DNA from: Candidatus Yanofskybacteria bacterium CG10_big_fil_rev_8_21_14_0_10_36_16
GTDB lineage: Bacteria; Patescibacteriota; Minisyncoccia; 2-02-FULL-40-12; IGHO2-01-FULL-4-A
NCBI GenBank assembly: GCA_002794035.1
Contig: PCXQ01000007.1
Coordinates: forward strand, 1,785-65,784
Direction of reading: 5' to 3'
Length of the DNA stretch: 64,000 nucleotides
The notes under the pieces were generated by a model that was given only the letters and a program-made list of their open reading frames with translations, was not told where the DNA came from and did no database searches. Positions 5,105 to 40,927 of the stretch are shown in pieces (within the stretch, counting starts at the first letter, position 1; each line of letters opens with the position of its first letter). The translations under genes and the position numbers were made by a program.

Positions 5105-6631
5105 ATGAATTTAAGATATTTTAAACTTATAATTAGCGCGATAATCCTTGCGGGGTTTTTTTATATTACTTGGATTATGATTGATCCTGATATTTTTTGG
5201 CATTTAAAGGTTGGCCAAGAAATATACACAACAGGAGGAATCCCCCACTTTGACCACTTTAGCCACACGATGCCGTACCATGCATGGGTAGACCACGAAG
5301 CACTCACTGAAGTGTGGTTTTATTTAATGTACTCAAGCGGCTTTTGGTGGATTTTAAAAATAATATTTAGCCTAATTATATCTATACCTTTTATTTTTTG
5401 GATTTATAAAAGCAATAATTATTTCTTGCCGGTTGTGATACTGTTTTCATCTATATACCTTCTGGGAATAGCGGGAGTGAGACCTCAGTGGATTTCTTTT
5501 TTGTTATTCTTTGTTGTTTTTCAAATATTACTCCAAAAATATTGGCACAAAAAGAACAACAAATCATTTTATTTTCTACCGTTAATTTTTCTAGTTTGGG
5601 CTAATTTGCATGCCGGGTTTTTTATGGGTTTGATGACATTTGGTTTTTTGGTGATGATGAACCTATTTCAGAACAGAAACATAAATCAGGAAATTCGCCC
5701 AATAATAATTTTGGGATTAAGTACAATTGTTACACTTATTAATCCTTATGGCTGGCATATTTATGAAGAAATTTTTAAAGTAGCTACATCTTCTTCTACA
5801 TTAAAATACATTGCTGAGTGGCAACCAGTATTCACAACGCCAGATCTATCACTAGTACTATTTGGCGGGGTTTTTATTTCTTTTATTTTAATCTTTAAAT
5901 CATACAAAAAATATCCCCTGCCTTTTTTGGCTTTGTCTTTGATAATGTTTTGTATGTTTTTAATGTCAAAAAGACACGGACCTTTATTCTTTATAACTTC
6001 AATGCCAATAATTTTTAATGGATTTGAAATTATAAAAAACAAGATATATGTTTTGCGAAACAACAAACCTTTTTCCCAAACCGAAACCAACAAAGCACTT
6101 TCGGGAGTTTTAATATTGTTTATTATAGCATTGGGTTCTTTTGGTTATAAAATTTTAAATTATCAAGTATATAAAATTCCCGAAAATGCTGTTATCTTTC
6201 TGAAAGAAAATAAATATGGCCAAAAAGATTTAAAGCTATTCAATAATTATGGATGGGGTGGATATTTAATCTGGGAAACACCTGAAATAAAAGTGTTCAT
6301 AGACGGCAGAATGCCTCACTGGCAAAAAAACAAAGAATCCGCAATGAGCGATTATATTAAAACTGTATTCAATCCCGAAACAGAAGAATGGAAAAAAGTA
6401 TTTAATAAATACAAAATAAACACAGTAATAATGCCTGCAAATATATACCAACAAGAACACATATCAAAATATTCAATCAAAAAAATAGAGAATAAAATAA
6501 AAACATGGCTTAAAACTAAAGAAACCACAAAGAATAAAACTCTTGTGGGAATATTAAAAGAAAATGGCTGGAGCACCTCATACCAAGATGATGTTGCTAT
6601 AGTTCTAGAATGCGAAAAAGATTGTTATTAA
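5105..6631 (+). CDS. GT-C fold membrane glycosyltransferase-like protein (PMT/ArnT-like)
   Basis: More than 10 predicted TM helices with an acidic IDPD motif in the first external loop and a soluble C-terminal domain. Family assignment is inferential. Confidence 0.45.
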   Translation: MNLRYFKLIISAIILAGFFYITWIMIDPDIFWHLKVGQEIYTTGGIPHFDHFSHTMPYHAWVDHEALTEVWFYLMYSSGFWWILKIIFSLIISIPFIFWIYKSNNYFLPVVILFSSIYLLGIAGVRPQWISFLLFFVVFQILLQKYWHKKNNKSFYFLPLIFLVWANLHAGFFMGLMTFGFLVMMNLFQNRNINQEIRPIIILGLSTIVTLINPYGWHIYEEIFKVATSSSTLKYIAEWQPVFTTPDLSLVLFGGVFISFILIFKSYKKYPLPFLALSLIMFCMFLMSKRHGPLFFITSMPIIFNGFEIIKNKIYVLRNNKPFSQTETNKALSGVLILFIIALGSFGYKILNYQVYKIPENAVIFLKENKYGQKDLKLFNNYGWGGYLIWETPEIKVFIDGRMPHWQKNKESAMSDYIKTVFNPETEEWKKVFNKYKINTVIMPANIYQQEHISKYSIKKIENKIKTWLKTKETTKNKTLVGILKENGWSTSYQDDVAIVLECEKDCY

Positions 6632-17301: not shown

Positions 17302-17441
17302 GCTCAAATTATACCAAACAACAACCAGTAATTCAATTGCTTTATTTTTTATAATGTTTTTAAATTTTGTAAATTCAAAACTAGAACAAACAGCAAAAAT
17401 AACCCTTGCCTCGTTTGGCAACTTATGATATCTTTACCACC

Positions 17442-18689
17442 ATGAATACAACAACAATACAACACAGCAGTGTTTCAATGAAAGACCTGCTAACTCAGGC
17501 AAATTTTGATTTACCAAAAGAAGGAGATGTTGTTAAGGGAGAAATTATTAGTGTAAGCAAAAACAACATTTTTATAGACTTGGGTGCTTTTGGTACCGGA
17601 ATAGTTTACCCGGGTGAATTTTATGATAATCTAAATATGCAAAAAACCTTAATCCCAGGTCAAAAAATATCTGCAATTCTTATTGATATAGAAACTGAAG
17701 ACGGGTTTAGAGAATTATCACTTAAACAAGCTCAAAAAACCACAGCTTGGCACGACATTAAAAAATTAAAGGACGACGGCACTGTCATAACAACTCCAAT
17801 AATAAACATAAACAAAGGAGGGGCAATTGTTGAAATCGGAGGAATTCAAGGATTTTTGCCTTTATCTCAATTAAGTTCTGAAAATTATCCAAAAGTAGAG
17901 GGAGGTGACACCACAAAAATAGTCCAGCATCTTCAAAAATTAAAAAATAAAAACGTTAAAATAAAAATATTAGATTTTAACGAAGAAGAAACCAAACTTA
18001 TTGTTTCTGAAAAAGCTGTAGGAGATGAAGAAACAAAAAAAGAGATAGAGAAATTTGAAATTGGTGATGTAGTTGAAGGAATAATAACAGGCGTAACGGA
18101 TTTTGGTGCATTTGTATCCTTAACCCCAAACACACCCGATAAAGAAACGGGGGGCGACAAACCAGAAGATATTAATAAAACAGGAGATTCAGAACAAGAA
18201 GAGCCAGAGGAAGATGGCAACATGCCAGAAGTCACTTCAGTTGAAGGCCTGATTCACATTTCTGAAATTGACTGGAAGTTAATAAGCGACCCGCGTGACT
18301 TTCTTAAAAAAGGACAAAGAGTTAAGGCAAAAATAATAAGTATAGATGGAACAAAGATATCCCTGTCTCTAAAAGCTCTTAAACAAGACCCGTGGCAAGG
18401 CATAGACAAAAAGTATCCTGTTGGCACATCATTAAAAGCAACAATAACAAAAGTTAACAATTACGGAGCGCTGGCTGCGCTTGATGAAGAAATAACCGGC
18501 TTGATACCTTCTTCGGAATTTGTGGGTAAAAAACCTGCTGATTCAGCTGAAGCGGGAAATGAGATTGATGTTACTGTAGTATCAGTAGATCCAGAAGAAC
18601 ACAAACTCATATTAACACTTTCCCAACATGATAAATCTAAAGACGTAGAACCTGAAACCAGTGATAACCCAAACAACGAAGAAGACTAA
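17442..18689 (+). CDS. rpsA: 30S ribosomal protein S1-like (four S1 domains)
   Basis: Repeated S1-domain blocks (GDVVKGEIISV..., GAIVEIGGIQGFLP..., GDVVEGIITGVTDFGAFV..., GTSLKATITKVNNYGALAAL) and an acidic C-terminus. ATG at 17442 is preferred over the upstream TTG. Confidence 0.8.
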   Translation: MNTTTIQHSSVSMKDLLTQANFDLPKEGDVVKGEIISVSKNNIFIDLGAFGTGIVYPGEFYDNLNMQKTLIPGQKISAILIDIETEDGFRELSLKQAQKTTAWHDIKKLKDDGTVITTPIININKGGAIVEIGGIQGFLPLSQLSSENYPKVEGGDTTKIVQHLQKLKNKNVKIKILDFNEEETKLIVSEKAVGDEETKKEIEKFEIGDVVEGIITGVTDFGAFVSLTPNTPDKETGGDKPEDINKTGDSEQEEPEEDGNMPEVTSVEGLIHISEIDWKLISDPRDFLKKGQRVKAKIISIDGTKISLSLKALKQDPWQGIDKKYPVGTSLKATITKVNNYGALAALDEEITGLIPSSEFVGKKPADSAEAGNEIDVTVVSVDPEEHKLILTLSQHDKSKDVEPETSDNPNNEED

Positions 18690-18847: not shown

Positions 18848-19519
18848 ATGAGAAGAAAGAAATCAAAGCGAAATGTGGCAGGCAATAGACCATGGGAAAC
18901 TCCCCCGGAAGACATGAAGCATTTTGCAATAACTGCTGATATGTTCCCTCCGGGACAAGAGTATCTAGCTCATGATCTAGCTCGGGAGCATAGAATGTTC
19001 GAAGAATCGGGATGTTTAAAGGATTTAGAAGAACACTCCGACCAAACTGTGGTCGCCATCGGCCTTTTTGATGAAAAATTTATATTAGTTGATGACCAAA
19101 ACAAATCTGGCTTAGGATTTCCCGGAGGTTCTGTTACCCCTGGAGAGATGCCGGTCAAAACCCTGATTAGAGAGATCGGCGAAGAAGTAGATCTCTCAGC
19201 CGAAGTTTTTGAAAGTTATTATGTTGAATTTCCAGTTGGAGAAACCCAAGAAGATCCTCATATTTTTTCGGCCTATTGGGTTAGCTTTATTGGCAATAAG
19301 CCAAATATAAAAAAATTCGACAAAGAGGAGCCTATTACAGCCATTTATCTCGTGTCTTATGATACAATTCTCAGACTATGCCAAACAAATGGCATTTTAA
19401 TTCATGAAGGCAAAAGAACTAAGCCCATTCTAAGAAACCACAGAATAGCGTTTCTCCAAATGGTTGAGCTTTTAAATTCAAGATCAGAAAATTCTGAAAA
19501 GGAGGCTTCTTATGTATAA
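18848..19519 (+). CDS. NUDIX hydrolase
   Basis: Nudix box GGSVTPGEMPVKTLIREIGEEVDL (Gx5Ex7REUxEExGU with the last G replaced by D). Confidence 0.7.
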   Translation: MRRKKSKRNVAGNRPWETPPEDMKHFAITADMFPPGQEYLAHDLAREHRMFEESGCLKDLEEHSDQTVVAIGLFDEKFILVDDQNKSGLGFPGGSVTPGEMPVKTLIREIGEEVDLSAEVFESYYVEFPVGETQEDPHIFSAYWVSFIGNKPNIKKFDKEEPITAIYLVSYDTILRLCQTNGILIHEGKRTKPILRNHRIAFLQMVELLNSRSENSEKEASYV

Positions 19520-20363
19520 TTTTGATGAAAGACTGAAATGCCTTAGTAAATTAGGCATAGATATTAGGGTTTTAAACTTAACTTCTGAGATAAAAGATGG
19601 AAATCTATTTTTTGCTGAAGTATTGTCTCCCAAAAATAATTCAGGTCTTCTGATTATGGCTGAACCCAACGAAGAAGTTAAATTTGGAGTTGTTGTGGAC
19701 TTGGAAAAAAATTCTGAATTAATTGTGTTTGAAGTTTCGGGGAAAAACAGAAACATCACTCTGCTTGGAAACAAGTCCCCCTCAAACTCAGCCACGAAAA
19801 CATTTATCAAGAGGGTGCGTACCCACCCTGATAAAACAGGGTGCTACACAACTAAAAATAATGCCTTCCAAAACAACGGGCTTTGGGTAGCCAAAATTGG
19901 TCCTAAAAGTCTTGAAATGTGGGAAATCGCTATAGTAACCCAAATACAGGGATTGTCGAAATATTACCTATCCCTGCAAAAAGTGTACTGTGCCGATTTA
20001 TATGAAAATAATGGAGAGATATTCGTTCCTGAAGAACAATTTCTAAATTATAACAATTGGCAATCCTTAAATGAGTTAGTTAAGAAATGTGTAAATGTTG
20101 AAAAACTAACCTCAGCAAAAAATTATTCTCCGCCAAACGATACCGCGCCAGAACTTGAACCAAATAAATGCCAAATTCAATGGTTCAACCAGTCGCGACG
20201 TTATGGACTTGGGAACATCAATGGGCACCGAGGCCCAGTCATGATTCACTCTTCTGAAATTTTAGACCAAGAATTCCCGGCCTTAGATCCGGGAACAATC
20301 GTCAGTTTTGACAAAATAAAAAGAACACCTCAGGGATTACAACTCCAAGGTGTAAAGGAATAA
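19512..20363 (+). CDS. hypothetical protein with C-terminal cold-shock (CSD/OB) domain
   Basis: C-terminal QIQWFNQSRRYGLGNINGHRGPVMIHSSEI...GTIVSFD matches the CspA pattern (G.VKWFN..KGFGFI...DVFVHFSAI). Overlaps the Nudix gene by 8 nt, so probably operonic. Confidence 0.55.
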   Translation: MYNFDERLKCLSKLGIDIRVLNLTSEIKDGNLFFAEVLSPKNNSGLLIMAEPNEEVKFGVVVDLEKNSELIVFEVSGKNRNITLLGNKSPSNSATKTFIKRVRTHPDKTGCYTTKNNAFQNNGLWVAKIGPKSLEMWEIAIVTQIQGLSKYYLSLQKVYCADLYENNGEIFVPEEQFLNYNNWQSLNELVKKCVNVEKLTSAKNYSPPNDTAPELEPNKCQIQWFNQSRRYGLGNINGHRGPVMIHSSEILDQEFPALDPGTIVSFDKIKRTPQGLQLQGVKE

Positions 20364-20396
20364 AAAAAATCCCCCCGCCAAAGCGGGGGGTTTTAG
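20364..20396. terminator. bidirectional rho-independent terminator
   Basis: aaaaaaaTCCCCCCGCCaaaGCGGGGGGtttt. Confidence 0.65.
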
Positions 20397-20434
20397 TCCC
20401 CGAAGGGATAAATTCAGTGTTGAGTCAGCAGCGA

Positions 20435-21520
20435 TCAGCTGGCGGCACCCGTCTTGCGGAGCACCTTGCCGCTGGATCCCTGGACCTTTAAGGTCTTGGA
20501 CTTTTTGTTCGGTTTGGGAGCATCGGCTCCCGCACCTTGTTGGCGGCGCCCCTTCAGTTGGGACACCACCGTGACGTCGCCCTCCACCGATTCGTCTTCC
20601 TCGGCCCGTTGAAAGGCCATGGAAATCGCACCGATGGAACCCGGGTGGCAGGATGCCACGCGATCGTCTCCGATCAGCGACCCGTTTTGGACCGCTTCTC
20701 GTGCCGATTCCAGGTCATACCCGGCTTCGGTAAGCTCATTGGCGGTCCGCTCGTGGAGCGACACGCCGTTCCAATTGACCAAGGTCGGCTTGGGCCGGCC
20801 TTGCCAGTTTCGCTGGCGATCCTGACGATCGTTGTTTCCGCCGAAGCCGGTCGGGCGACCGCGATGATCACTGCTGTTCGGATTCCTCTGGCTCTGGGGC
20901 AAGTTTCTTGAGATCTGCTTGCGCAAATCTCCAAGTTTCCACTTGCCGGCGAGCTCTGGCCCTTCCGCCTTCTTGTTCGCATAGGTTCCCCAGCGGATGT
21001 TGAACAGATCACGGCAGCCCTCGCATGCCGTGAACATGAAGAGATCGCTCGGCTTTTCGTTGCCGAACGCCTCTTGGGTCAGGGTTTCCGCCCTGTCCAT
21101 GATCTCGTCCTTCCCGTCGACGCCTTCGACTAGCTTCTCCAAGGTCTTCGCCTTGAATAAGTAGAAGTTACCGCCGACAACGATGGCCTCGCCGTCATCG
21201 CTCTCTCGAGTGATTACACGCGGCTGGAACATTTGGTCGCAGACGGTGCAAGACCGTTGCGGACCGTCAGGCTCGTAGCCGGTGAACAGGCTCATGCCCT
21301 CCAACAGAACCCCCTCGAGGTCGGCCCGGGTCCACAGCCGATTCTCCTTCTGGAGATCGGCGTTGTGGCCACGCATCCGGCCGGGGTCGAACGGCTTACG
21401 CCGAACGTTCATCTTGAGAAGGTTGAATGCCTCCTCTGTGCAGGAGAGATTTACTTCGATCTTATCCCCCTGCTCGGTATAGGCGCGGAACTGAAAGTCC
21501 CGCCGTTCTTCTTGTGCCAT
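20435..21520 (-). CDS. hypothetical protein A encoded in a high-GC (about 60%) islet; two CxxC pairs, basic C-terminal tail
   Basis: Long ORF on the minus strand in a sharply GC-rich segment (about 20395-21620). Several shorter overlapping ORFs in other frames occur in the same segment. CTVC and CEGC motifs and a KPNKKSKTLK tail. No recognisable family. Confidence 0.5.
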   Translation of the reverse strand: MAQEERRDFQFRAYTEQGDKIEVNLSCTEEAFNLLKMNVRRKPFDPGRMRGHNADLQKENRLWTRADLEGVLLEGMSLFTGYEPDGPQRSCTVCDQMFQPRVITRESDDGEAIVVGGNFYLFKAKTLEKLVEGVDGKDEIMDRAETLTQEAFGNEKPSDLFMFTACEGCRDLFNIRWGTYANKKAEGPELAGKWKLGDLRKQISRNLPQSQRNPNSSDHRGRPTGFGGNNDRQDRQRNWQGRPKPTLVNWNGVSLHERTANELTEAGYDLESAREAVQNGSLIGDDRVASCHPGSIGAISMAFQRAEEDESVEGDVTVVSQLKGRRQQGAGADAPKPNKKSKTLKVQGSSGKVLRKTGAAS

Positions 21521-21871
21521 CGTGGCACCTCCTTTAAAGTAACGGGTTGAACCGCCAAAATACCCCTGAACTCAACAGAGGAACTGGCGTTTTGAACACG
21601 ATTAATGATTGATTCAACAATCAGAAACGTAGCCAAAATACCAGCTCCTCTAAAACATATTTAATATTTTAAAAGTCCTGTATCTTTCCTATCTTTATCA
21701 GTATATAATCATTATAACAAATTGACATGTTTTGTCAACCCCGCTCTTGAAATAATTCGGAGTTTTGAGCTAGACCCTTAAAAACCCTTATAAATAGCCG
21801 TTATGTGGGCCTTAAATAATAAAAAGGCCCGCCTGCTTAATTTAATAACACAGGCGGGTTATTAGCCATTC

Positions 21872-23254
21872 CTAGAAACTAATTATATTACCATTTGAAG
21901 GCTTTATAATGCTCCCCAAAAAACCATTTGATAAAATAAGTTTTTCAAGGCCTTCTCGGCCATTTTTTTCTCCATGATTTAATATCACTCGTTTGGGGTT
22001 CAGGTTTTTAACAAAACCAGAGAGCTGGAGACCGTCTGCGTGACTGGTAAGTTCAAATTTCTCAACACGGGCTGAGAGATTGATTTCGTCACCATACACA
22101 TTAACAATTCCTCCGTTTTGACTGGCATGAAAGATTTCATAACCCTCAGTTAGAGGTGCCTGGTATCCGGTAATTCCGAGCATGTTTCTAGTTCTTTCAA
22201 GGAAACGGCCGGATGTTAAGTGGGCTTGAGCGCAACTTCCTCTAACCATCATGCCTGCAGTTGTAACCACTGCAAGAGGATTAGGATTTCCTGAAGATAA
22301 AATCTCCATTCTTTGAGCTCTGTTATAAATTTTAAGCAAATCAATTTCTCCCGAGTTCAAATCAATCCCAGAAGAATGATCTAAATTAGACCAATACCCA
22401 AACTTACTGGCATATACATCGAACATGGTCACACACATGCCATCAATAAAAGGCTTTAATCCTCTACTTAACAAAGCCAGAAAAACATCCGGGCCTCGTC
22501 CGACACCAAAAGCTGGGAATACGGCTTTGCCGTTTCCATTCATAACATCCGATGCAATACGTGCCAATCTGTCTTCTTCAGGATAGCGCTCTACAATGGA
22601 GCGATCTCCATAAGTTGACTCAATAAATAGGTGATCAACCCTGCCGACAAATTCTTCAGGCATTTCCATGCCCCTAACTGTCGGGGTGTCATAAAAAGAC
22701 ATATCTCCTGAAAAACAGGTTATTGTTTCTCCAACTTTAAGGAATATCATCGCTGAACCGCGAATGTGACCGTTTGGCCAATAAAAAGCATCCACACCTG
22801 GAAACAAATTAATCCATCCCGGTTTTTCAATCTTTGTTATTTTCTCACATGCCTTTGCTGCAGCATCTGAAAAAATCAGGGATTCTCTAACACCTTCATT
22901 TTGTTCTTTGATGTATGAGGTGTTAAGCCATAACTGCATCGCAATAGCCGAAGTTGGAACCGTCATATAAATTGACGCTTCGGGATTTTCTTTTAAAACA
23001 TAGGGAATGTTGCCAGTATGGTCAGAGTGAGCATGAGTAATTAATACAGCATGCACAATATAATCTGGCATAATATGGCCCTCTGAATAACTAAACCTCT
23101 CGCCATAATCATCTAAACCGGTTCTTGTCTTAACTCCGGAATCAATTAAAATGTTTCTATTGTTTCCAAGGTCATCCTTTACTCTAACAAGAGTGGCTGA
23201 TGCACCTACTTCATCAAATCCTCCAAGACATTCAAAAGCCTTAATTTCGGCCAT
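21872..23254 (-). CDS. beta-CASP family MBL-fold ribonuclease/hydrolase
   Basis: LITHAHSDHTG (MBL motif 2), ESTYG, LTSHAD and LNHGE motifs in beta-CASP order. AT-rich codon usage like the rest of the window. Confidence 0.7.
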   Translation of the reverse strand: MAEIKAFECLGGFDEVGASATLVRVKDDLGNNRNILIDSGVKTRTGLDDYGERFSYSEGHIMPDYIVHAVLITHAHSDHTGNIPYVLKENPEASIYMTVPTSAIAMQLWLNTSYIKEQNEGVRESLIFSDAAAKACEKITKIEKPGWINLFPGVDAFYWPNGHIRGSAMIFLKVGETITCFSGDMSFYDTPTVRGMEMPEEFVGRVDHLFIESTYGDRSIVERYPEEDRLARIASDVMNGNGKAVFPAFGVGRGPDVFLALLSRGLKPFIDGMCVTMFDVYASKFGYWSNLDHSSGIDLNSGEIDLLKIYNRAQRMEILSSGNPNPLAVVTTAGMMVRGSCAQAHLTSGRFLERTRNMLGITGYQAPLTEGYEIFHASQNGGIVNVYGDEINLSARVEKFELTSHADGLQLSGFVKNLNPKRVILNHGEKNGREGLEKLILSNGFLGSIIKPSNGNIISF

Positions 23255-23342
23255 TTCATTTTCTCCTTGTTCTCAAAAAATATTGTAAAACTACTAAATT
23301 ATAATATTACCACTTAAAAAACAAAAAGTCAATATAAATTAA

Positions 23343-23377
23343 AGGCCCGCAAGGTAGTGTTTCCACCTTGCGGGCGC
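23343..23377 (-). terminator. rho-independent terminator downstream of GC-rich ORF B
   Basis: CCCGCAAGGtagtgtttccaCCTTGCGGG hairpin just 3' of the minus-strand stop. Confidence 0.55.
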
Positions 23378-23380
23378 ATG

Positions 23381-24340
23381 TTAGCCGGCCATTAGAACCG
23401 GCTCATCATCGGGGGATTCTTCGTCATCCCCCTCTTCGGGAGCTCCCGGGGTCGGGATCAGATTTTGGTCCGACGCCGGCCGCCAGTCTACTGAGGTCGA
23501 AGATTTCTCAACCCCGTTTAAGATCACGTAGTTTGCGAACGTAGCCGGGACTTCCAACCCGTTCGCATAAACCCAGTCGATGGCCTTGTAGATGTCCGTG
23601 GCCTCGTCTTCGGAAATCGGCACAAGGAGCCATGGTGGGACCCACATGCCGTGCTGGAACGTGCCCTCATCCGGATTGAACTCGTCGGTCCGGAATTCTT
23701 CTTCCTTGTGGTATCCATCTTGGTCATACCACTCATAGAAGACCGAGTACGCATGGGTGAACTGGACATACGTCCACGCCCGCTCCTCAGCATACCTCCA
23801 GTAGGGCTGAGGCTGGACCAACTTACAACACCGTCCGTCGGGGTAGAACTCCCGCGCCGCCTCGAAAGGCAACACGACCTTCAGCCAGACTTCCTGTTCA
23901 AGCTCGGGTTCCGAGTCAGGCTGACCCGGAATGGCTCTCCGTTCCACAGGAAGTTCCTCGAGGAAAGGCAATTGACTTAGCCACTCCTCGGGGGTGAGGG
24001 TCAGGTGGAATCCGTTTTGATGACCGTTCCGAGAACTCGGATCGGACATCTTGAACTTCCTCCACTGAATCGATCGCGCGGTCACGGTGATCAGGTCCGG
24101 GACTTCGCCCGGATCGAACACCAAGCCCTGCTTCGATTCTCCTTCGCCAACGAATACCGTAACGGATCCGTCGGCATGGCGCTTTTCCACCACGTCCCCA
24201 TCAGGGGTCATGATGGTCCGGCACTCTCGTTCCTCTCCTCCCTGAGTCGTCCAACGACGGACGACTTCCTTGAAAGCGGGTTTTGTTTCAGAGGCCGCTT
24301 TACCCTCTGTTTCCTTGGTCATTCTTTTCTCCTTCACCAA
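23381..24340 (-). CDS. hypothetical protein B encoded in a second high-GC (about 58-60%) islet; acidic C-terminus
   Basis: Long ORF on the minus strand. The GC-rich segment (about 23345-24360) is bounded by AT-rich intergenic DNA. No recognisable motifs. Confidence 0.5.
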   Translation of the reverse strand: MVKEKRMTKETEGKAASETKPAFKEVVRRWTTQGGEERECRTIMTPDGDVVEKRHADGSVTVFVGEGESKQGLVFDPGEVPDLITVTARSIQWRKFKMSDPSSRNGHQNGFHLTLTPEEWLSQLPFLEELPVERRAIPGQPDSEPELEQEVWLKVVLPFEAAREFYPDGRCCKLVQPQPYWRYAEERAWTYVQFTHAYSVFYEWYDQDGYHKEEEFRTDEFNPDEGTFQHGMWVPPWLLVPISEDEATDIYKAIDWVYANGLEVPATFANYVILNGVEKSSTSVDWRPASDQNLIPTPGAPEEGDDEESPDDEPVLMAG

Positions 24341-24486
24341 GTTATCCCTTAATAAAGGGGTTGGTGTACTGATAATATATTAACAAATTTAGACGCAAAA
24401 GTCAAATCTGATTTTTTGATATTTTTAACAAAAATAACTCCAAATAAATTCTTGAGTTCTTCACTTTTTTGTGTTATTTTAGCTAG

Positions 24487-26304
24487 ATGAAATCAATATT
24501 TAAGTATCTAACAATTGTATTTATTGTTTTGCTTGTTCTATCCGGTTTTGCGGCTATTTTGCAGTCGCCATTATCTACTGAGAACAAAGATGTCTCGTTA
24601 ACCGGCCTTGCGGGTAAAATTAACAATGGAGAGGTAAAAGAAATAATAGTTAAGGGTGACAATTTAGAAATAACCTTAAATGACGCTACTGAACTTAAAT
24701 CTAAAAAAGAAATCGGGGTTTCAATCACCGAGTCGCTTCTTAATGTTGGGGTAACTGAAGAGGGATTAAATGCCGTTAATATTGATATCCAAAATGAAAG
24801 CGGTTTCGCATTTTACGCCATTAATATTTTGCCAATACTACTTCCTTTCATATTTATCGTATTTATATTCTGGTTCATGTTCCGTCAAGCTCAACGCGGT
24901 TCCATGCAAGCATTTTCTTTCGGTAAATCAAAGGCTCGTCTAGCAACTGAAGGGGGTAAAAAAAGAGTTACCTTTAAAGATGTAGCTGGACTAATAGAAG
25001 CCAAAGAGGAAGTTACAGAGGTTGTAGAATTTCTAAGAGATCCCGACAAATTTAAAAAACTTGGCGCCCGCATTCCAAGAGGCGTTCTTCTTGTCGGTTC
25101 TCCCGGTACAGGAAAAACACTCCTTGCTAAAGCTGTCGCCAATGAAGCAAAGGTTCCTTTCTTTTATGTTTCTGGCTCAGAATTTGTAGAAATGTTTGTC
25201 GGTGTTGGCGCTTCACGTGTAAAAGATACTTTTGAAACAGCTAAAAAAGCATCCCCTTCTATTATTTTTGTAGATGAAATAGATGCAGTTGGACGACAAA
25301 GAGGCGCAGGCCTTGGCGGAGGACATGATGAGCGAGAGCAAACACTTAACCAAATATTAGTTGAAATGGACGGTTTTGATACTGACGATGCTGTTATTGT
25401 AGTTGCAGCTACCAATAGACCCGACACTCTTGACCCCGCTTTGCTTCGTCCGGGCAGATTTGATCGCAGGATAATACTTGACGAACCTTCAATGAAAGAC
25501 CGCGAAGAAATACTAAAATTACACGCAACAGACAAGCCCTTAGCTGAAGATGCCGACCTAAAGGTTGTAGCCGAAAGAACTCCCGGATTCTCAGGGGCAG
25601 ACTTAGCAAACATATTGAATGAAGCAGCTATTCTTGCCGCCCGTAAAAATCAAAAAGAAATAACTAACGAAAATCTTGTTGAAGCTATAGAAAAAGTGAT
25701 ACTTGGTCCTGAAAGAAAATCAAAAGTCTTCAGTCCTAAAGAAAAAAAGATTGCTGCCTTCCACGAAGCAGGCCATGCCCTTGTTGCTAGTTCCCTGCCC
25801 AACACTGATCCCGTACATAAAGTTTCTATAATTTCACGCGGACGAGCTGGTGGTTATACATTAAAACTTCCAAGCGAAGATAGGCATCTTAAATCCCGAG
25901 CTGAATTTGAATCAGAATTAGCAGTACTTTTAGGTGGCCAAACAGCTGAAGAAATCGTATTTAATGAAATAACGACTGGTGCATCAAACGATCTTAAAGT
26001 TGCATCAGATATTGCCAGAAAAATGGTCACTCAATATGGAATGTCCGAAAAATTAGGGCCAATTACATTTGGCGAAAAAGATGAACTTGTATTTTTAGGC
26101 AAAGAAATTACGGCTGACAAAAATTATTCTAATGAAATTGCTTACCAAATTGACCAGGAAGTAAACCGTCTTATTACTACCGCCAAAGAAACTGCCAAAA
26201 AAACAATAAAGAACAAGATAGAAACCCTTAATAAGATAGCCGAAGTGTTAATTGAAAAAGAGACTCTTGAACGAAATGAGTTCTATGCTTTGGTCAAAGC
26301 ATAA
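24487..26304 (+). CDS. ftsH: ATP-dependent zinc metalloprotease FtsH
   Basis: N-terminal TM helices, AAA Walker [12 protein letters not shown] region and HEAGHA zinc-binding motif. Confidence 0.95.
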
Positions 26305-29926: not shown

Positions 29927-29995
29927 TGCGGACGTGGCGGAACCGGTATACGCGCTACCTTGAGGTGGTAGTGGGAGCAATCCCGTGGAGGTTCA

Positions 29996-30126
29996 CCCCG
30001 CACTTGAAAAGTTGTATATCCTAGGGCACGTGGCGGAACCGGTATACGCGCTACCTTGAGGTGGTAGTGGGAGCAATCCCGTGGAGGTTCAAATCCTCTC
30101 GTGCCCACAACCTTTCAAGTGCGGGG
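29996..30126 (+). other. intervening sequence in the tRNA-Leu T-loop: 14-bp closing stem enclosing a complete tRNA-Leu(GAG)
   Basis: Stem arms at 29996-30009 and 30113-30126 are exact reverse complements. A TTCA direct repeat lies at both junctions. tRNA-B sits between the arms. Confidence 0.6.
30024..30107 (+). tRNA. tRNA-Leu (anticodon GAG), complete copy nested inside the interrupted tRNA-Leu
   Basis: GGGCACG/CGTGCCC acceptor stem. Its body (positions 8-60) is identical to the outer tRNA: anticodon loop UUGAGGU, long variable arm, T-arm GGAGGTTCAAATCCTCT. No encoded CCA. Confidence 0.8.
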
Positions 30127-30373
30127 TTCAAATCCTCTCGTCCGCACCAGTAAGGAAATTGCAAGTTTTGAAGATTCGCCTCGCTTCGCTCGGCGGTCAA
30201 AACGTATTGCATTTTGGGCTCAAAAAGGAATTCAAGATTTAGTTTGAGAGTAAGATTTTGACCAACAAACAGCAGAAATGCTGATTTTTAATTTACAATA
30301 TTTTTCTATTGTTTTTAAGGCGTTTAAATGCTAATATCGTTTTAAGTTCCAACATCGGACAAGGAGGTTAGAA

Positions 30374-31042
30374 ATGAAATTAACACTAGTTCTTTTATTA
30401 TTCCTTCCGCTCATAGCACAACAACAGCCAAACTTCTCCAAAGATGATAACCAACAGGCTGAAGAAGCAATTAGAGAACAGCCCTACGATGGACCTTTGG
30501 AAGTGCAGACCTGCAGGACCATCTTTAACTACGAAAAAATGGATTGGCTTGAAAATTATTCTGCAAAACACACAACCACATTGAGTAAACTTGGCATTAC
30601 CCCAACTTCGGTCAACATTTTAAAAACAACAGTTGCAAAGAGGCTAGCGCAAGACCTTGTCAGTCGTATTAAGAACAACCTACCAGTCGAAGAAATATGC
30701 ATGTATTGCATTTGCGGTGATGGTATATGCGCCACGTCCAGCGTGGAATTGCAAAAAATTTATCAAATCGGCGACTTGCTCGACTATATTGTCAAAGAAG
30801 TTCCAGCAGTCAATGAAGGCATACTCTTGGTAGACACCCTTGAACCATGGAAGAAGTCAGTGATTCAAGAGGCTAGCAGTATTAAGACTAAGTGCGAAAC
30901 GGACATGAAGGATATACCGAACCATTGGCCTAAATATAGCCGGGAATGCAAGACACTACTCAAAGCTTTATCTTACGGCATTGAACCATCAGCTCTGAAG
31001 CTAACTGCATCAATGATAGTAAAACTCCGTACTATAAACTAA
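30374..31042 (+). CDS. secreted Cys-containing hypothetical protein
   Basis: Signal peptide MKLTLVLLLFLPLIAQQ. Strong RBS AAGGAGGT sits 8 nt upstream. No recognisable domain. Confidence 0.5.
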   Translation: MKLTLVLLLFLPLIAQQQPNFSKDDNQQAEEAIREQPYDGPLEVQTCRTIFNYEKMDWLENYSAKHTTTLSKLGITPTSVNILKTTVAKRLAQDLVSRIKNNLPVEEICMYCICGDGICATSSVELQKIYQIGDLLDYIVKEVPAVNEGILLVDTLEPWKKSVIQEASSIKTKCETDMKDIPNHWPKYSRECKTLLKALSYGIEPSALKLTASMIVKLRTIN

Positions 31043-39490: not shown

Positions 39491-40927
39491 GTGAAGGATT
39501 TAAATTTTTTATCACCAAAAAATAAAGGATCAAAACCAAACAATACCGCGACTAAAGTCGCTACCTTTTTGGCATTCTTTGCTATTGCTTTCTCTGCTTC
39601 CCTTACTTATGTAGCATCGGAAACAAAACCAATTCAATTAAATCTCAGCCACATTGAGTGTAATTATAATAATACTGATGGTATCAATGTTCACTTTGTG
39701 GCAATAAATTTACCGGATGATGTCAGTGATTTTGGACAAGTAACCTATATAGTTAATAGTGAAGGCCGTACTGCTGAATTTACTAAGCTTTCCGGCAATA
39801 CTGCACACTACAATGATTACTTACTAGAAGTTTCTGATACATATTCTGTAACCGATGGCTATGTTGTTATTGACGGACAAACCGTACAACTTCATAATCC
39901 TAAATCTATAAAGATAACTTGTGGTGAAAATCCTACCCCTACACCAACACCAGAACCTACTCCTACTGTAATCCCTACACCTACACCTACTCCTACTGTA
40001 ATCCCTACACCTACACCTACTAGCTGCTTTTTAGAAATCACCAAAACAGTTGATCAGGAAACATCGGTTCCTGGTCAAATATTGGAATATAAATTAAATT
40101 TTGAAAATACAGGAACAACCAACTGCACAGGTGGTGGAGTAGAAATAGAAGACACATTAGTGAATGAGTTAACTTTTGTTGACCAATCTCATTCTGAAAA
40201 TGTAACTTGGGTAGGTCAAAATGAACAAACCCTTCAATGGAATGCTGGCACTCTAACCCCCGGTGAAAAAGGATGGGTTCAGTTTGACGCTCAAGTTAAC
40301 ACACCTCAAAGCTGTGGCAATTATACAATTAATAACAAAGGCAAGATTACTGCATTTGAATTGTCTTGGCAGTGGGTACTAAGTAATAACGTAGAGATAA
40401 ATATCAACAACAACTGCCCTACTTCTACACCAACTCCTACTCCTACTGTAACCCCTACTTCTACACCTACACCAACTGTTACACCTACTCCTACTGTAAC
40501 CCCTACTTCTACACCTACACCAACTGTTACACCTACTCCTACTTCTACACCTACACCAACTGTTACACCTACTCCTACTTCTACACCTAGTGGTGGAGGT
40601 GGGGGTGGTGGGGGTTTCTTCCCTCAGCCTACTCCTACACCGACACCTACTGTAACTCCTACACCTACTCCCGTTGTTCTTGGTTCAAGTACAACTGAAA
40701 AACCTAAAACAGCAACATCTAGCACAGCAACATCAAATTTGGCACAAGTTGCTGGCGTAAGCACAGGAACCGATACAATTATTGTTTCGTGGATTATAGC
40801 ATTAGTGTTCTCAACGTTATTTGCTATATATAAAACAACAGAGCAATCAAACTTAAAAGAAATCCTTAAAATTATAAAAATTCAAAAAAAGGACAAAAAT
40901 AAATTTAATTTCGCTCTCCACAACTAA
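39491..40927 (+). CDS. cell-surface protein with DUF11-like repeat domain, Pro/Thr-rich linkers and C-terminal TM anchor
   Basis: N-terminal TM/signal anchor. CFLEITKTVDQETSVPGQILEYKLNFENTGTTNCTGGGVEIEDTL is a DUF11-like block. Long (TPTPTVTP)n tracts, a Gly8 run and a C-terminal hydrophobic anchor. Confidence 0.6.
   Translation: MKDLNFLSPKNKGSKPNNTATKVATFLAFFAIAFSASLTYVASETKPIQLNLSHIECNYNNTDGINVHFVAINLPDDVSDFGQVTYIVNSEGRTAEFTKLSGNTAHYNDYLLEVSDTYSVTDGYVVIDGQTVQLHNPKSIKITCGENPTPTPTPEPTPTVIPTPTPTPTVIPTPTPTSCFLEITKTVDQETSVPGQILEYKLNFENTGTTNCTGGGVEIEDTLVNELTFVDQSHSENVTWVGQNEQTLQWNAGTLTPGEKGWVQFDAQVNTPQSCGNYTINNKGKITAFELSWQWVLSNNVEININNNCPTSTPTPTPTVTPTSTPTPTVTPTPTVTPTSTPTPTVTPTPTSTPTPTVTPTPTSTPSGGGGGGGGFFPQPTPTPTPTVTPTPTPVVLGSSTTEKPKTATSSTATSNLAQVAGVSTGTDTIIVSWIIALVFSTLFAIYKTTEQSNLKEILKIIKIQKKDKNKFNFALHN
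40425..40600 (+). repeat. in-frame tandem nucleotide repeats encoding the Pro/Thr linker
   Basis: Repeated cctac(t/a)cctact(g/t)taac/acacc units, followed by a G-rich run ggtggaggtgggggtggtggggg. A smaller PT repeat block lies at 39945-40020. Confidence 0.7.

Follow-up and report, generated by a model that had tools for sequence, protein, structure and literature searches.

The stretch of DNA analyzed here, referred to as the window, comprises 64,000 nucleotides of contig PCXQ01000007.1 from Candidatus Yanofskybacteria bacterium CG10_big_fil_rev_8_21_14_0_10_36_16, and includes two GC-rich segments on either side of a gene for a β-CASP nuclease. Each segment holds one long open reading frame (ORF) on the minus strand, and these are termed gene A and gene B. 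An earlier note, made from the sequence alone, had described two GC-rich single-ORF segments around an AT-rich β-CASP gene, and this was confirmed by GC profiles in 200-nt windows, by ORF calls, and by statistics on the GC content of first, second, and third codon positions (GC1, GC2, and GC3). The window has a GC content of 35.7% overall and of 34.9% once both segments are excluded. GC in 200-nt windows was 0.51-0.635 over positions 20400-21599 (segment A) and 0.52-0.595 over positions 23300-24299 (segment B), and it dropped back to background within ∼100 nt of the ORF ends in both cases. The 49 other ORFs of at least 120 amino acids in the window had a GC3 of 0.271 (S.D. 0.046, maximum 0.422), which gene A exceeds by ∼10 S.D. 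and gene B by ∼8.7 S.D. The remaining peaks at or above 0.47 GC in the window were tRNA genes or modest peaks only. Analysis by codon position identified A and B as coding sequences with a foreign-looking codon choice; the composition of the middle β-CASP gene was near-native (GC 0.403, GC3 0.319). The coordinates of the features at this locus are collected in Table 1. For gene B, an alternative upstream TTG at 24340 would yield a protein of 319 residues (23381-24340), but the ATG at 24322 is the more likely start because GGAG lies ∼7 nt upstream of it and because the gene calls in two other assemblies, JGI and Logan, agree.

Table 1. Features at the β-CASP locus, in window positions
Feature	Position	Strand	Description
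S1 gene	17406-18689	+	Conserved neighbour; native GC
NUDIX hydrolase gene	18848-19519	+	Conserved neighbour; native GC; weak RNA-pyrophosphohydrolase-like matches
Cold-shock domain (CSD) protein gene	19512-20363	+	Conserved neighbour; native GC
Terminator hairpin common to the convergent CSD gene (+) and gene A (-)	20371-20390	both	8-bp all-GC stem; T runs on either strand
Gene A	20435-21520	-	361 amino acids; GC 0.597; GC1 0.61, GC2 0.44, GC3 0.738
Gene A 5′ leader	21521-21704	-	About 185 nt; 160-230 nt at other loci
Gene A Shine-Dalgarno sequence	21534-21528	-	AAGGAGG
Alternative pairing of leader hairpin 3′ arm	21563-21600	-	Terminator-like (see text)
Leader hairpin	21653-21576	-	Long, imperfect, 26 bp; covariation-supported
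GAACnTTnAAAA box	21678-21667	-	In A leader, 5′ of the hairpin; nearly invariant
Gene A promoter	21711-21738	-	TTGACA-16-(TG)TTATAAT; 12/12 consensus match
β-CASP terminator hairpin	21828-21858	-	Just past the β-CASP stop codon; inverted repeat I25; likely terminator
β-CASP gene	21872-23254	-	Predicted CPSF73/aCPSF1-type metallo-RNase; 460 amino acids; HAHSDH motif at residue 74; without KH domains
β-CASP promoter	23304-23332	-	TTGACT-17-(TG)GTAATAT; position conserved in orthologous loci
Gene B intrinsic terminator	23345-23375	-	13-bp stem; hairpin at this position conserved in orthologs
Gene B	23381-24322	-	313 amino acids from ATG; GC 0.571; GC1 0.62, GC2 0.42, GC3 0.672
Gene B promoter	24377-24405	-	TTGACT-17-(TG)TTAATAT; conserved in orthologs
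FtsH gene	24487-26304	+	Conserved divergent neighbour of B; native GC

The product of the middle gene aligned over nearly its entire length (residues 9-443) to CPSF73, FttA, and IntS11 chains, and it contains motif 2 (HxHxDH) of the metallo-β-lactamase (MBL) fold. Pfam Lactamase_B matched with 39.5 bits (cutoff 22.7) and RMMBL with 37.1 bits (cutoff 21.6). Beta-Casp scored 18.8, below its cutoff of 27.7; members of the subfamily do match this family (PF10996), and the β-CASP and RMMBL regions were judged to be present. Matches to PDB sequences at E = 1e-24 to 1e-28 comprised archaeal CPSF-100/CPSF73-type proteins, human CPSF73, IntS11, FttA, and Cas14 (2xr1, 2i7t, 9bct, and 7cun among them), followed by TTHA0252 at E = 3e-19 and by ribonuclease (RNase) J at E of about 1e-4 over the first ∼100 residues only. 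The aCPSF1 profile (TIGR03675) matched with E = 2e-48. Given that this match begins only at profile position 179 of 631 and that the protein begins with its MBL domain, KH domains are lacking. An aCPSF1/FttA equivalog was rejected, both for this absence of N-terminal KH domains and for a score of 165 bits against a cutoff of 580. The middle protein is best described as an active-looking β-CASP RNase of the CPSF73 type, but an equivalog of neither aCPSF1/FttA nor Cas14.

The earlier note had proposed a three-gene module centred on the nuclease, with a defence or toxin-like role, assembled from foreign parts. β-CASP nucleases do occur in type VII CRISPR systems, the accessory proteins at this locus are fast-evolving, the Cas14 profile (NF045584) matched the nuclease at E = 9e-36, and PADLOC returned a weak generic LmuA-like match for it (1e-4) and no other. 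The Cas14 score, however, was 123 bits against a cutoff of 800, no CRISPR-like array was found in the window by a tandem-repeat scan, and the flanking genes matched no family, whether of Cas proteins or otherwise, in Pfam, NCBIfam, or PADLOC, so a type VII Cas14 system was rejected. PADLOC contained no match for A or B, and in all relatives the module keeps one fixed site between housekeeping genes, unlike the patchy distribution of an island. We regard an anti-phage defence or toxin module as very improbable. What stands of the earlier proposal is the three-gene module itself, as a conserved syntenic unit; neither the foreign parts nor the defence or toxin role found support.

Proteins A and B had been described as lacking a recognizable domain, and searches of Pfam, PHROGs, NCBIfam, and PADLOC indeed gave no match for either. 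Profiles built from the two families also matched nothing among PDB sequences and Pfam, and the two proteins are unrelated to each other. Inspection of the family A alignment (22 sequences) reveals that the two CxxC pairs reported earlier, C91/C94 and C166/C169, are near-invariant, each cysteine being invariant or at least 90% conserved. The 4-Cys N-terminal domain, which also carries GGNF and FQP motifs, appears Zn-ribbon-like and contains a putative metal site. Beyond it come a linker that is disordered and rich in R, G, and N, a small helical domain on the C-terminal side, and a basic tail that is again disordered. An AlphaFold2 (AF2) model of A built from the family multiple sequence alignment (MSA) had a predicted local distance difference test (pLDDT) value of 81, rising above 90 for residues of about 20-210 and 250-300. 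Foldseek searches with this model against PDB and BFVD returned nothing significant; residues 245-312 are weakly HhH-like, as a possible (HhH)2-type domain. All 22 family A clusters look alike in protein architecture.

Protein B consists of a variable basic N terminus and a conserved Trp-rich C-terminal domain (EQWFRV..LP, FPDGWCxKLV, WTYVQLP, and CGMWxP.WLL.PI). The acidic tail to which the earlier note drew attention is present in the window protein but is specific to it, being absent in five of six orthologs; one ortholog (locus L014) has its own C-terminal extension that ends acidic. As judged from their sequences, A and B represent two fast-evolving, previously uncharacterized, lineage-restricted families, with no fold relative detectable for A.

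Sharp composition steps at the ORF borders, together with a word-indexed search that yielded no homologs, could be taken as signs of an assembly or binning chimera, or of islets recently transferred into a single genome. The exact A and B proteins were found on three assemblies, ENA k141_378028 (218 kb), JGI Ga0066639_10000592 (32 kb), and Logan SRR6240789_117839 (8 kb), all of which carry the order S1-NUDIX-CSD-A-β-CASP-B-FtsH. Over the shared 8-11 kb, all four junctions included, these contigs were 100% identical to the window; the three assemblies come from different pipelines, and their underlying reads are possibly shared. The same GC pattern was found again in independent genomes from other samples. 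Because the module and its GC pattern recur in related loci, a chimera is untenable, and neither it nor a recent transfer confined to one genome retains any appreciable likelihood.

Loci of relatives (given L numbers here) were drawn from the contigs of the β-CASP protein subfamily, from one metagenome match, and from contigs of more distant A homologs. The subfamily numbers ∼18 proteins with identities of 39-49%, and one of them bears the name Candidatus Yanofskybacteria. Co-occurrence of the three genes, which the earlier note had wished to see checked, was evident in seven loci with both flanks (L005, L009, L010, L012, L013, L014, and L018), where the order FtsH, B, β-CASP, A is kept; L014 is counted among these although its contig stops before A. 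Where contigs reach that far, NUDIX, CSD, and S1 come after A. Three loci are partial, with β-CASP and A only (L011), with A, NUDIX, CSD, and, further along, S1 (L016), or with A and the 3′ end of an upstream gene (L017), and a 1.4-kb contig with an A homolog alone (L015) gives no context.

Protein A was 33% identical to its positional equivalents in L005 and L010 over 294-349 residues (E = 7e-39 and 1e-35), and the C-terminal ∼150 residues of B were 32-39% identical to those in L005, L009, and L010 (E = 1e-15 to 1e-18). At ∼27-39% identity, the flanking genes of the related loci are true orthologs of A and B. Pairwise identities across loci were 0.71-0.86 for FtsH, which served as the control for vertical inheritance and for folding, 0.44-0.78 for β-CASP, 0.27-0.60 for A, and 0.30-0.52 for B. 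The identities of A correlated with those of FtsH (rho = 0.70) and β-CASP (rho = 0.72), as did those of B (rho = 0.54 and 0.70, respectively), which argues for vertical inheritance of the module with fast-evolving flanking genes. A pseudogene was considered for the broken gene A of L009 and rejected, the break being a scaffold gap. This gap of 100 N, at ∼6280-6380 of the L009 contig (GCA_964423175.1), splits the A ortholog near the low-complexity linker, and gene callers placed a spurious antisense ORF of 240 amino acids and a fragment of 89 amino acids in the region.

The word-indexed search, made of 5.8 billion proteins with A and B, returned the query itself only. Orthologs that it missed, which are contained in those very collections at 27-39% identity, were regained by synteny-guided comparison and by exhaustive HMMER searching, the latter giving 22 clusters of family A in 1.84e9 representatives, and “ORFan” calls from word-indexed search alone are therefore unsafe for fast-evolving proteins. 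Neither the CSD-domain neighbour nor the A alignment had a match in scans of genome contigs, and a metagenome scan gave one locus. No match was obtained with the family B alignment in viral contigs, or with A or B by tblastn in phage records. Homologs outside the small A and B families, donor-like ones included, were absent from all searches made (for A, these include the 1.84e9 representatives), and literature searches turned up neither this module nor conserved genes of high GC in bacteria of the Candidate Phyla Radiation (CPR). The module appears to be limited to Yanofskybacteria or to a small CPR clade.

Genes A and B were GC-raised over their own neighbours in every related genome, by 10-25 GC points at genome GC contents of 0.35-0.52 (Table 2). 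Across loci, the two genes had a GC of 0.535-0.691 and a GC3 of 0.56-0.83, compared with 0.36-0.52 and 0.25-0.63 for neighbouring genes, and the β-CASP gene was just slightly over background GC at every locus.

Table 2. GC content of A and B against background, and folding z values of the module genes against synonymous-codon shuffles
Locus	Background GC	GC of A	GC of B	Folding z, A	Folding z, B	Folding z, β-CASP
Window	about 0.35-0.40	0.60	0.57	-7.9	-5.6	-3.2
L005	0.41-0.43	0.58	0.54	-5.8	-4.9	-6.2
L009	0.40-0.46		0.58			
L012	0.43	0.63	0.63	+1.3	-2.0	-3.2
L010	0.46-0.49	0.64	0.64	-5.1	-6.5	-3.9
L013	0.48-0.50	0.63	0.60	-6.1	-2.6	-4.5
L014	0.49		0.63			
L016	0.48-0.51	0.65				
L017	0.44 (flank)	0.60				
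L018	0.52	0.69	0.67	-5.8	-5.8	-1.6

Recent acquisition from a high-GC donor, another explanation in the earlier note, is contradicted by the presence of GC-raised orthologs at the same site in every related locus, by a divergence that tracks FtsH and β-CASP, and by the lack of a donor homolog in the searches described above. That note had itself named conserved genes of the lineage with uniformly high GC as the observation that would overturn its proposal; such genes are what was found, and recent horizontal gene transfer (HGT) fails. Among the hallmarks of a genomic island, atypical composition and codon usage were present, but absence from the same site in relatives was not, and neither were mobility genes, a tRNA target, flanking repeats, or donor homologs. 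A repeat scan of the window detected no flanking repeats of note around the module, and no integrase or transposase lies within it. A, β-CASP, and B very probably constitute a native, conserved, and vertically inherited module, rather than the product of recent HGT or of a chimera.

A compositional by-product of the proteins themselves was also weighed, in which richness in Gly, Arg, Pro, Ala, and Glu alone makes A and B GC-rich. GC2 is raised, and the two proteins contain more Gly, Arg, Pro, and Glu (10% Gly and 8.6% Arg in A; 8.3% Pro and 12.5% Glu in B) and less Ile, Lys, and Asn. When the proteins were re-encoded with the native codon usage of the window, however, GC was only 0.42 for A and 0.43 for B and GC3 was 0.29, against observed values of 0.57-0.60 and 0.67-0.74. 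This result assigns approximately one-third of the GC excess to amino acid content and two-thirds to synonymous choice, and it largely refutes the by-product explanation, which we consider highly improbable. Three genes between CSD and S1 in the relative carrying P0129 (L016, 3706-6027) have a GC of 0.59-0.64 and no Pfam match. They encode Pro/Ala-rich, partly membrane-like, low-complexity proteins with very high GC2 and mildly raised GC3; amino acid content explains most of their composition, and they were rejected as a further case of the same phenomenon.

An ancient single transfer, in which the ancestor of the clade received A and B from a high-GC donor and amelioration is still outstanding, would account for the increase in GC1, GC2, and GC3 alike, a pattern seen in genes with a GC-rich genome in their past. 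The β-CASP gene, moreover, looks archaeal-like, so the deep origin of the module could be exogenous. Against this, orthologs of A and B are 27-60% identical while FtsH is 71-86% identical. Synonymous sites must be saturated at such divergence and should sit at the equilibrium of each genome. Background GC3 has moved from 0.27 to 0.63, yet A and B stay 0.12-0.47 above it everywhere, and no donor-like homolog was present in 1.84e9 representatives. An ancient transfer therefore seems distinctly unlikely. Given the saturation of synonymous sites and the shift in background GC3, a passive remnant of transfer should be gone, which argues that the GC offset is maintained.

Maintenance of the offset could in principle be achieved from outside, if a host, plasmid, or virus with the same genes served as a high-GC reservoir and replacement or gene conversion from it reset GC again and again. 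In favour of such a process, A and B are fast-evolving and ORFan-like, and CPR bacteria live attached to hosts. Replacement is nonetheless hard to reconcile with identities of A and B that follow those of FtsH and β-CASP, and with native AT-rich promoters, a leader hairpin, and terminators that are conserved in place. Phage records held no match, nor did viral contigs for the B family; flanking repeats and mobility genes are lacking; and the 22 family A clusters look alike in architecture. Taken together, these observations make recurrent replacement improbable.

The folding of the coding regions was assessed as the mean minimum free energy of 120-nt windows in comparison with synonymous-codon shuffles of the same gene. 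Values of z for the three module genes in the window and five related loci are given in Table 2; for 16 control genes (FtsH, S1, NUDIX, CSD, and others), z ranged from -2.7 to +1.7. A dinucleotide-shuffle control agreed, with mean per-window z values of -1.84 for A, -1.34 for B, and -1.09 for β-CASP, compared with +0.18 for FtsH, -0.05 for S1, and +0.10 for another native gene. The folding excess itself is real; its level (mRNA or DNA) and its purpose, discussed below, are what we infer from it. The NUDIX and CSD mRNAs were mildly over-folded (z = -1.5 and -2.7 against synonymous shuffles, with a mean z of about -1 against dinucleotide shuffles).

These data bear on codon-based throttling, whereby rare GC-ending codons would slow or limit translation of A and B, for example because the proteins are toxic in excess. 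G or C occupies 68-74% of third positions in A and B, versus 27% in the other genes of the window, and such very strong promoters as theirs make a brake after transcription plausible. The offset persists, however, where GC-ending codons are the majority (background GC3 of 0.63 versus 0.83 for A in L018, and of 0.59 versus 0.77 for B in L014), and throttling leaves the excess folding over synonymous shuffles unexplained. We consider it unlikely. None of the rival explanations accounts for the persistent offset across GC backgrounds combined with the folding excess over synonymous shuffles.

B, β-CASP, and A each have their own TG-extended σ70-type promoter and a hairpin just past the stop codon, and the promoters of all three genes and the terminator hairpin of B are conserved in the orthologous intergenic regions. 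The GC-hairpin terminator that the earlier note had assigned to ORF B is thereby borne out as a 13-bp stem (Table 1). A, β-CASP, and B would accordingly form separate transcription units. The start codons of B, β-CASP, and A lie in one reading frame (offsets of 1068 and 2802, both multiples of 3); given the separate promoters and terminators, this is most likely a coincidence, with a chance of 1 in 9. In the promoter of A, the -35 element TTGACA, the -10 element TATAAT, and the TG two bases 5′ of the -10 element were invariant in all seven orthologous loci aligned.

The 5′ leader of gene A folds at -53.2 kcal/mol in the window (z = -4.3). A consensus for its long hairpin was obtained with RNAalifold on nine leaders, in which 92.2% of cells were paired, versus 40-47% when the partner columns were slid by 1-3 positions. 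Compensatory double changes were present in 18 of the 26 pairs, versus 3-8 when slid, and none of 500 shuffles matched the observed pairing or covariation values. A ACCTAACCGGGAACCGGTGTG box 3′ of the hairpin is common to five lineages. Searches with a covariance model gave one match per locus, always upstream of A, at 64-85 bits in the sense direction versus 20-37 in the antisense direction. These matches are the training sequences of the model itself, and what is informative is the strand asymmetry and the absence of extra copies; no second copy of the hairpin was detected by the model in the 64-kb window. In its conserved position, compensatory changes, and strand asymmetry, the A leader has the properties of a structured, putatively cis-regulatory RNA. 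The L011 locus carries a different leader.

Instead of closing the hairpin, its 3′ arm can pair with a downstream segment, in the window as CCTCTG...CAGGGG followed by a UAUUUUGG U-tract, an arrangement that is terminator-like. The same alternative is found in L005, L010, L012, L013, and L018 as CTCGYAC...GTGYGGG around a CCGG-GAA-CCGG mini-hairpin. This alternative pairing suggests an attenuator-like switch. Rfam gave no credible match in the GC-rich segments, in the A leader, or in six orthologous loci. A known non-coding RNA (ncRNA) as the cause of the GC spike was rejected on this ground and because the ORFs are real, with motifs conserved at the protein level.

The explanation that we favour, with a probability of about 0.5, makes A, β-CASP, and B an RNA-processing module that is inherited vertically and specific to the lineage, with the GC content of A and B upheld by selection on RNA. 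A and B would most likely serve the CPSF73-type RNase as nucleic acid-binding or adaptor subunits, within a machine for RNA processing, decay, or termination. That A and B are partners of the RNase in RNA processing is suggested by synteny, by co-divergence, by the putative Zn-ribbon, HhH-like domain, and basic tail of A, and by the S1/NUDIX/CSD neighbourhood, and we hold the case for it to be evenly balanced. That the GC excess is caused by selection at the RNA level is put forward more tentatively, as somewhat short of an even chance. GC-rich, structured coding regions may protect the A and B mRNAs from single-strand-specific and AU-directed ribonucleolysis, or place them under its specific control, and the nuclease of the module may itself be the source of this activity. 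The 26-bp hairpin in the leader of A is probably an autoregulatory or processing site.

Several observations weigh against this explanation. The A gene of L012 showed no excess folding (z = +1.3), and the B gene of the same locus reached only -2.0. Antisense strands also out-folded their shuffles (-3.3 for A and -6.4 for B), which leaves the strand, and the choice between RNA and DNA, unsettled. AU-rich hexamers were not clearly depleted beyond composition, their avoidance being weak and inconsistent, and GC1 and GC2 are raised as well, as long-term compositional pressure would also cause. Synteny by itself is no proof that A, B, and the nuclease form a complex, and each of the three genes is transcribed on its own. 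The Rfam and literature results count as negative evidence only.

A more specific form of the RNA-processing explanation is that the A and B mRNAs, and more weakly that of β-CASP, are selected at synonymous and non-synonymous sites to escape, or to be feedback-regulated by, the RNase of the module, with A binding its own leader hairpin. We treat this form as doubtful. If true, bacteria would here display a compositional homeostasis that is confined to particular genes and has the look of horizontal transfer, and it would be linked to a hitherto unknown CPR complex for RNA processing or termination that includes a new protein fold.

Other observations concern the neighbours of the module and the rest of the window. 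The NUDIX gene overlaps by 8 nt the adjacent 283-amino acid gene with a C-terminal cold-shock domain, and this pair is kept beside the module in all relatives. Some distance away, a tRNA-Leu(GAG) gene (30024-30108, plus strand) has partial copies of itself on both sides: 64 nt identical to its 5′ two-thirds lie upstream (29932-29995), and 23 nt that match its 3′ end at 91% lie downstream (30125-30147, plus strand). Partial tRNA duplications often mark integration sites. Background GC3 in the window peaks, at 0.42, in the gene next after these copies (30374-31042). Imperfect tandem repeats (CCTACT units; periods of 6, 18, 30, and 48; up to 29 copies) occupy 39947-40671, where GC is slightly raised to 0.48, and are probably a repetitive coding segment.

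Composition outliers are routinely scored as HGT or contamination, and A and B provide a caution against HGT calls that are based on composition. They also suggest that, in tiny AT-biased genomes, selection acts on the nucleotide content or mRNA structure of particular genes. In addition, two new families and an unannotated structured leader locked to a CPSF73-type RNase offer an entry point to RNA decay and termination in CPR bacteria, which are poorly understood. The type of nuclease is known; the libraries and literature searched contain no description of the A and B families, of the leader RNA, or, above all, of a compositional homeostasis that two coding genes keep up throughout a lineage.

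The closest functional parallels are the archaeal aCPSF1/FttA and eukaryotic CPSF73/IntS11 machines, with which the module shares a CPSF73-type β-CASP metallo-RNase and, probably, dedicated non-catalytic partners. It differs from these in that the enzyme lacks N-terminal KH domains, in that neither A nor B is related to CPSF100, symplekin, or Spt4/5, and in that it resides in a CPR bacterium. The bacterial β-CASP RNases TTHA0252 and RNase J have the MBL and β-CASP fold and the HxHxDH motif in common with the module enzyme, but the match to RNase J is partial, and these enzymes are not known to be flanked by a dedicated pair of GC-rich genes. Cas14 of type VII CRISPR-Cas is a nuclease of the same broad type, although here the score was far below cutoff and the window is without a CRISPR array.

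Autoregulatory leaders of RNA-metabolism genes, of which those of E. coli rne, pnp, and rnc are examples, resemble the A leader in combining a long 5′ untranslated region and a long conserved hairpin with an RNA-decay neighbourhood; unlike them, the A leader matches no Rfam family. GC-rich structured ncRNA islands occur in AT-rich genomes and likewise show a GC spike and folding beyond composition, whereas the A and B segments are protein-coding, as indicated by conserved protein motifs and by the confident AF2 model of A obtained from the MSA. With horizontally acquired genomic islands, finally, the module shares a sharp compositional anomaly confined to ORFan-like genes. It has none of the mobility genes, tRNA target, flanking repeats, or donor homologs of such islands; instead, orthologs of A and B occupy the same site in every relative examined, and their GC offset is maintained rather than decaying.

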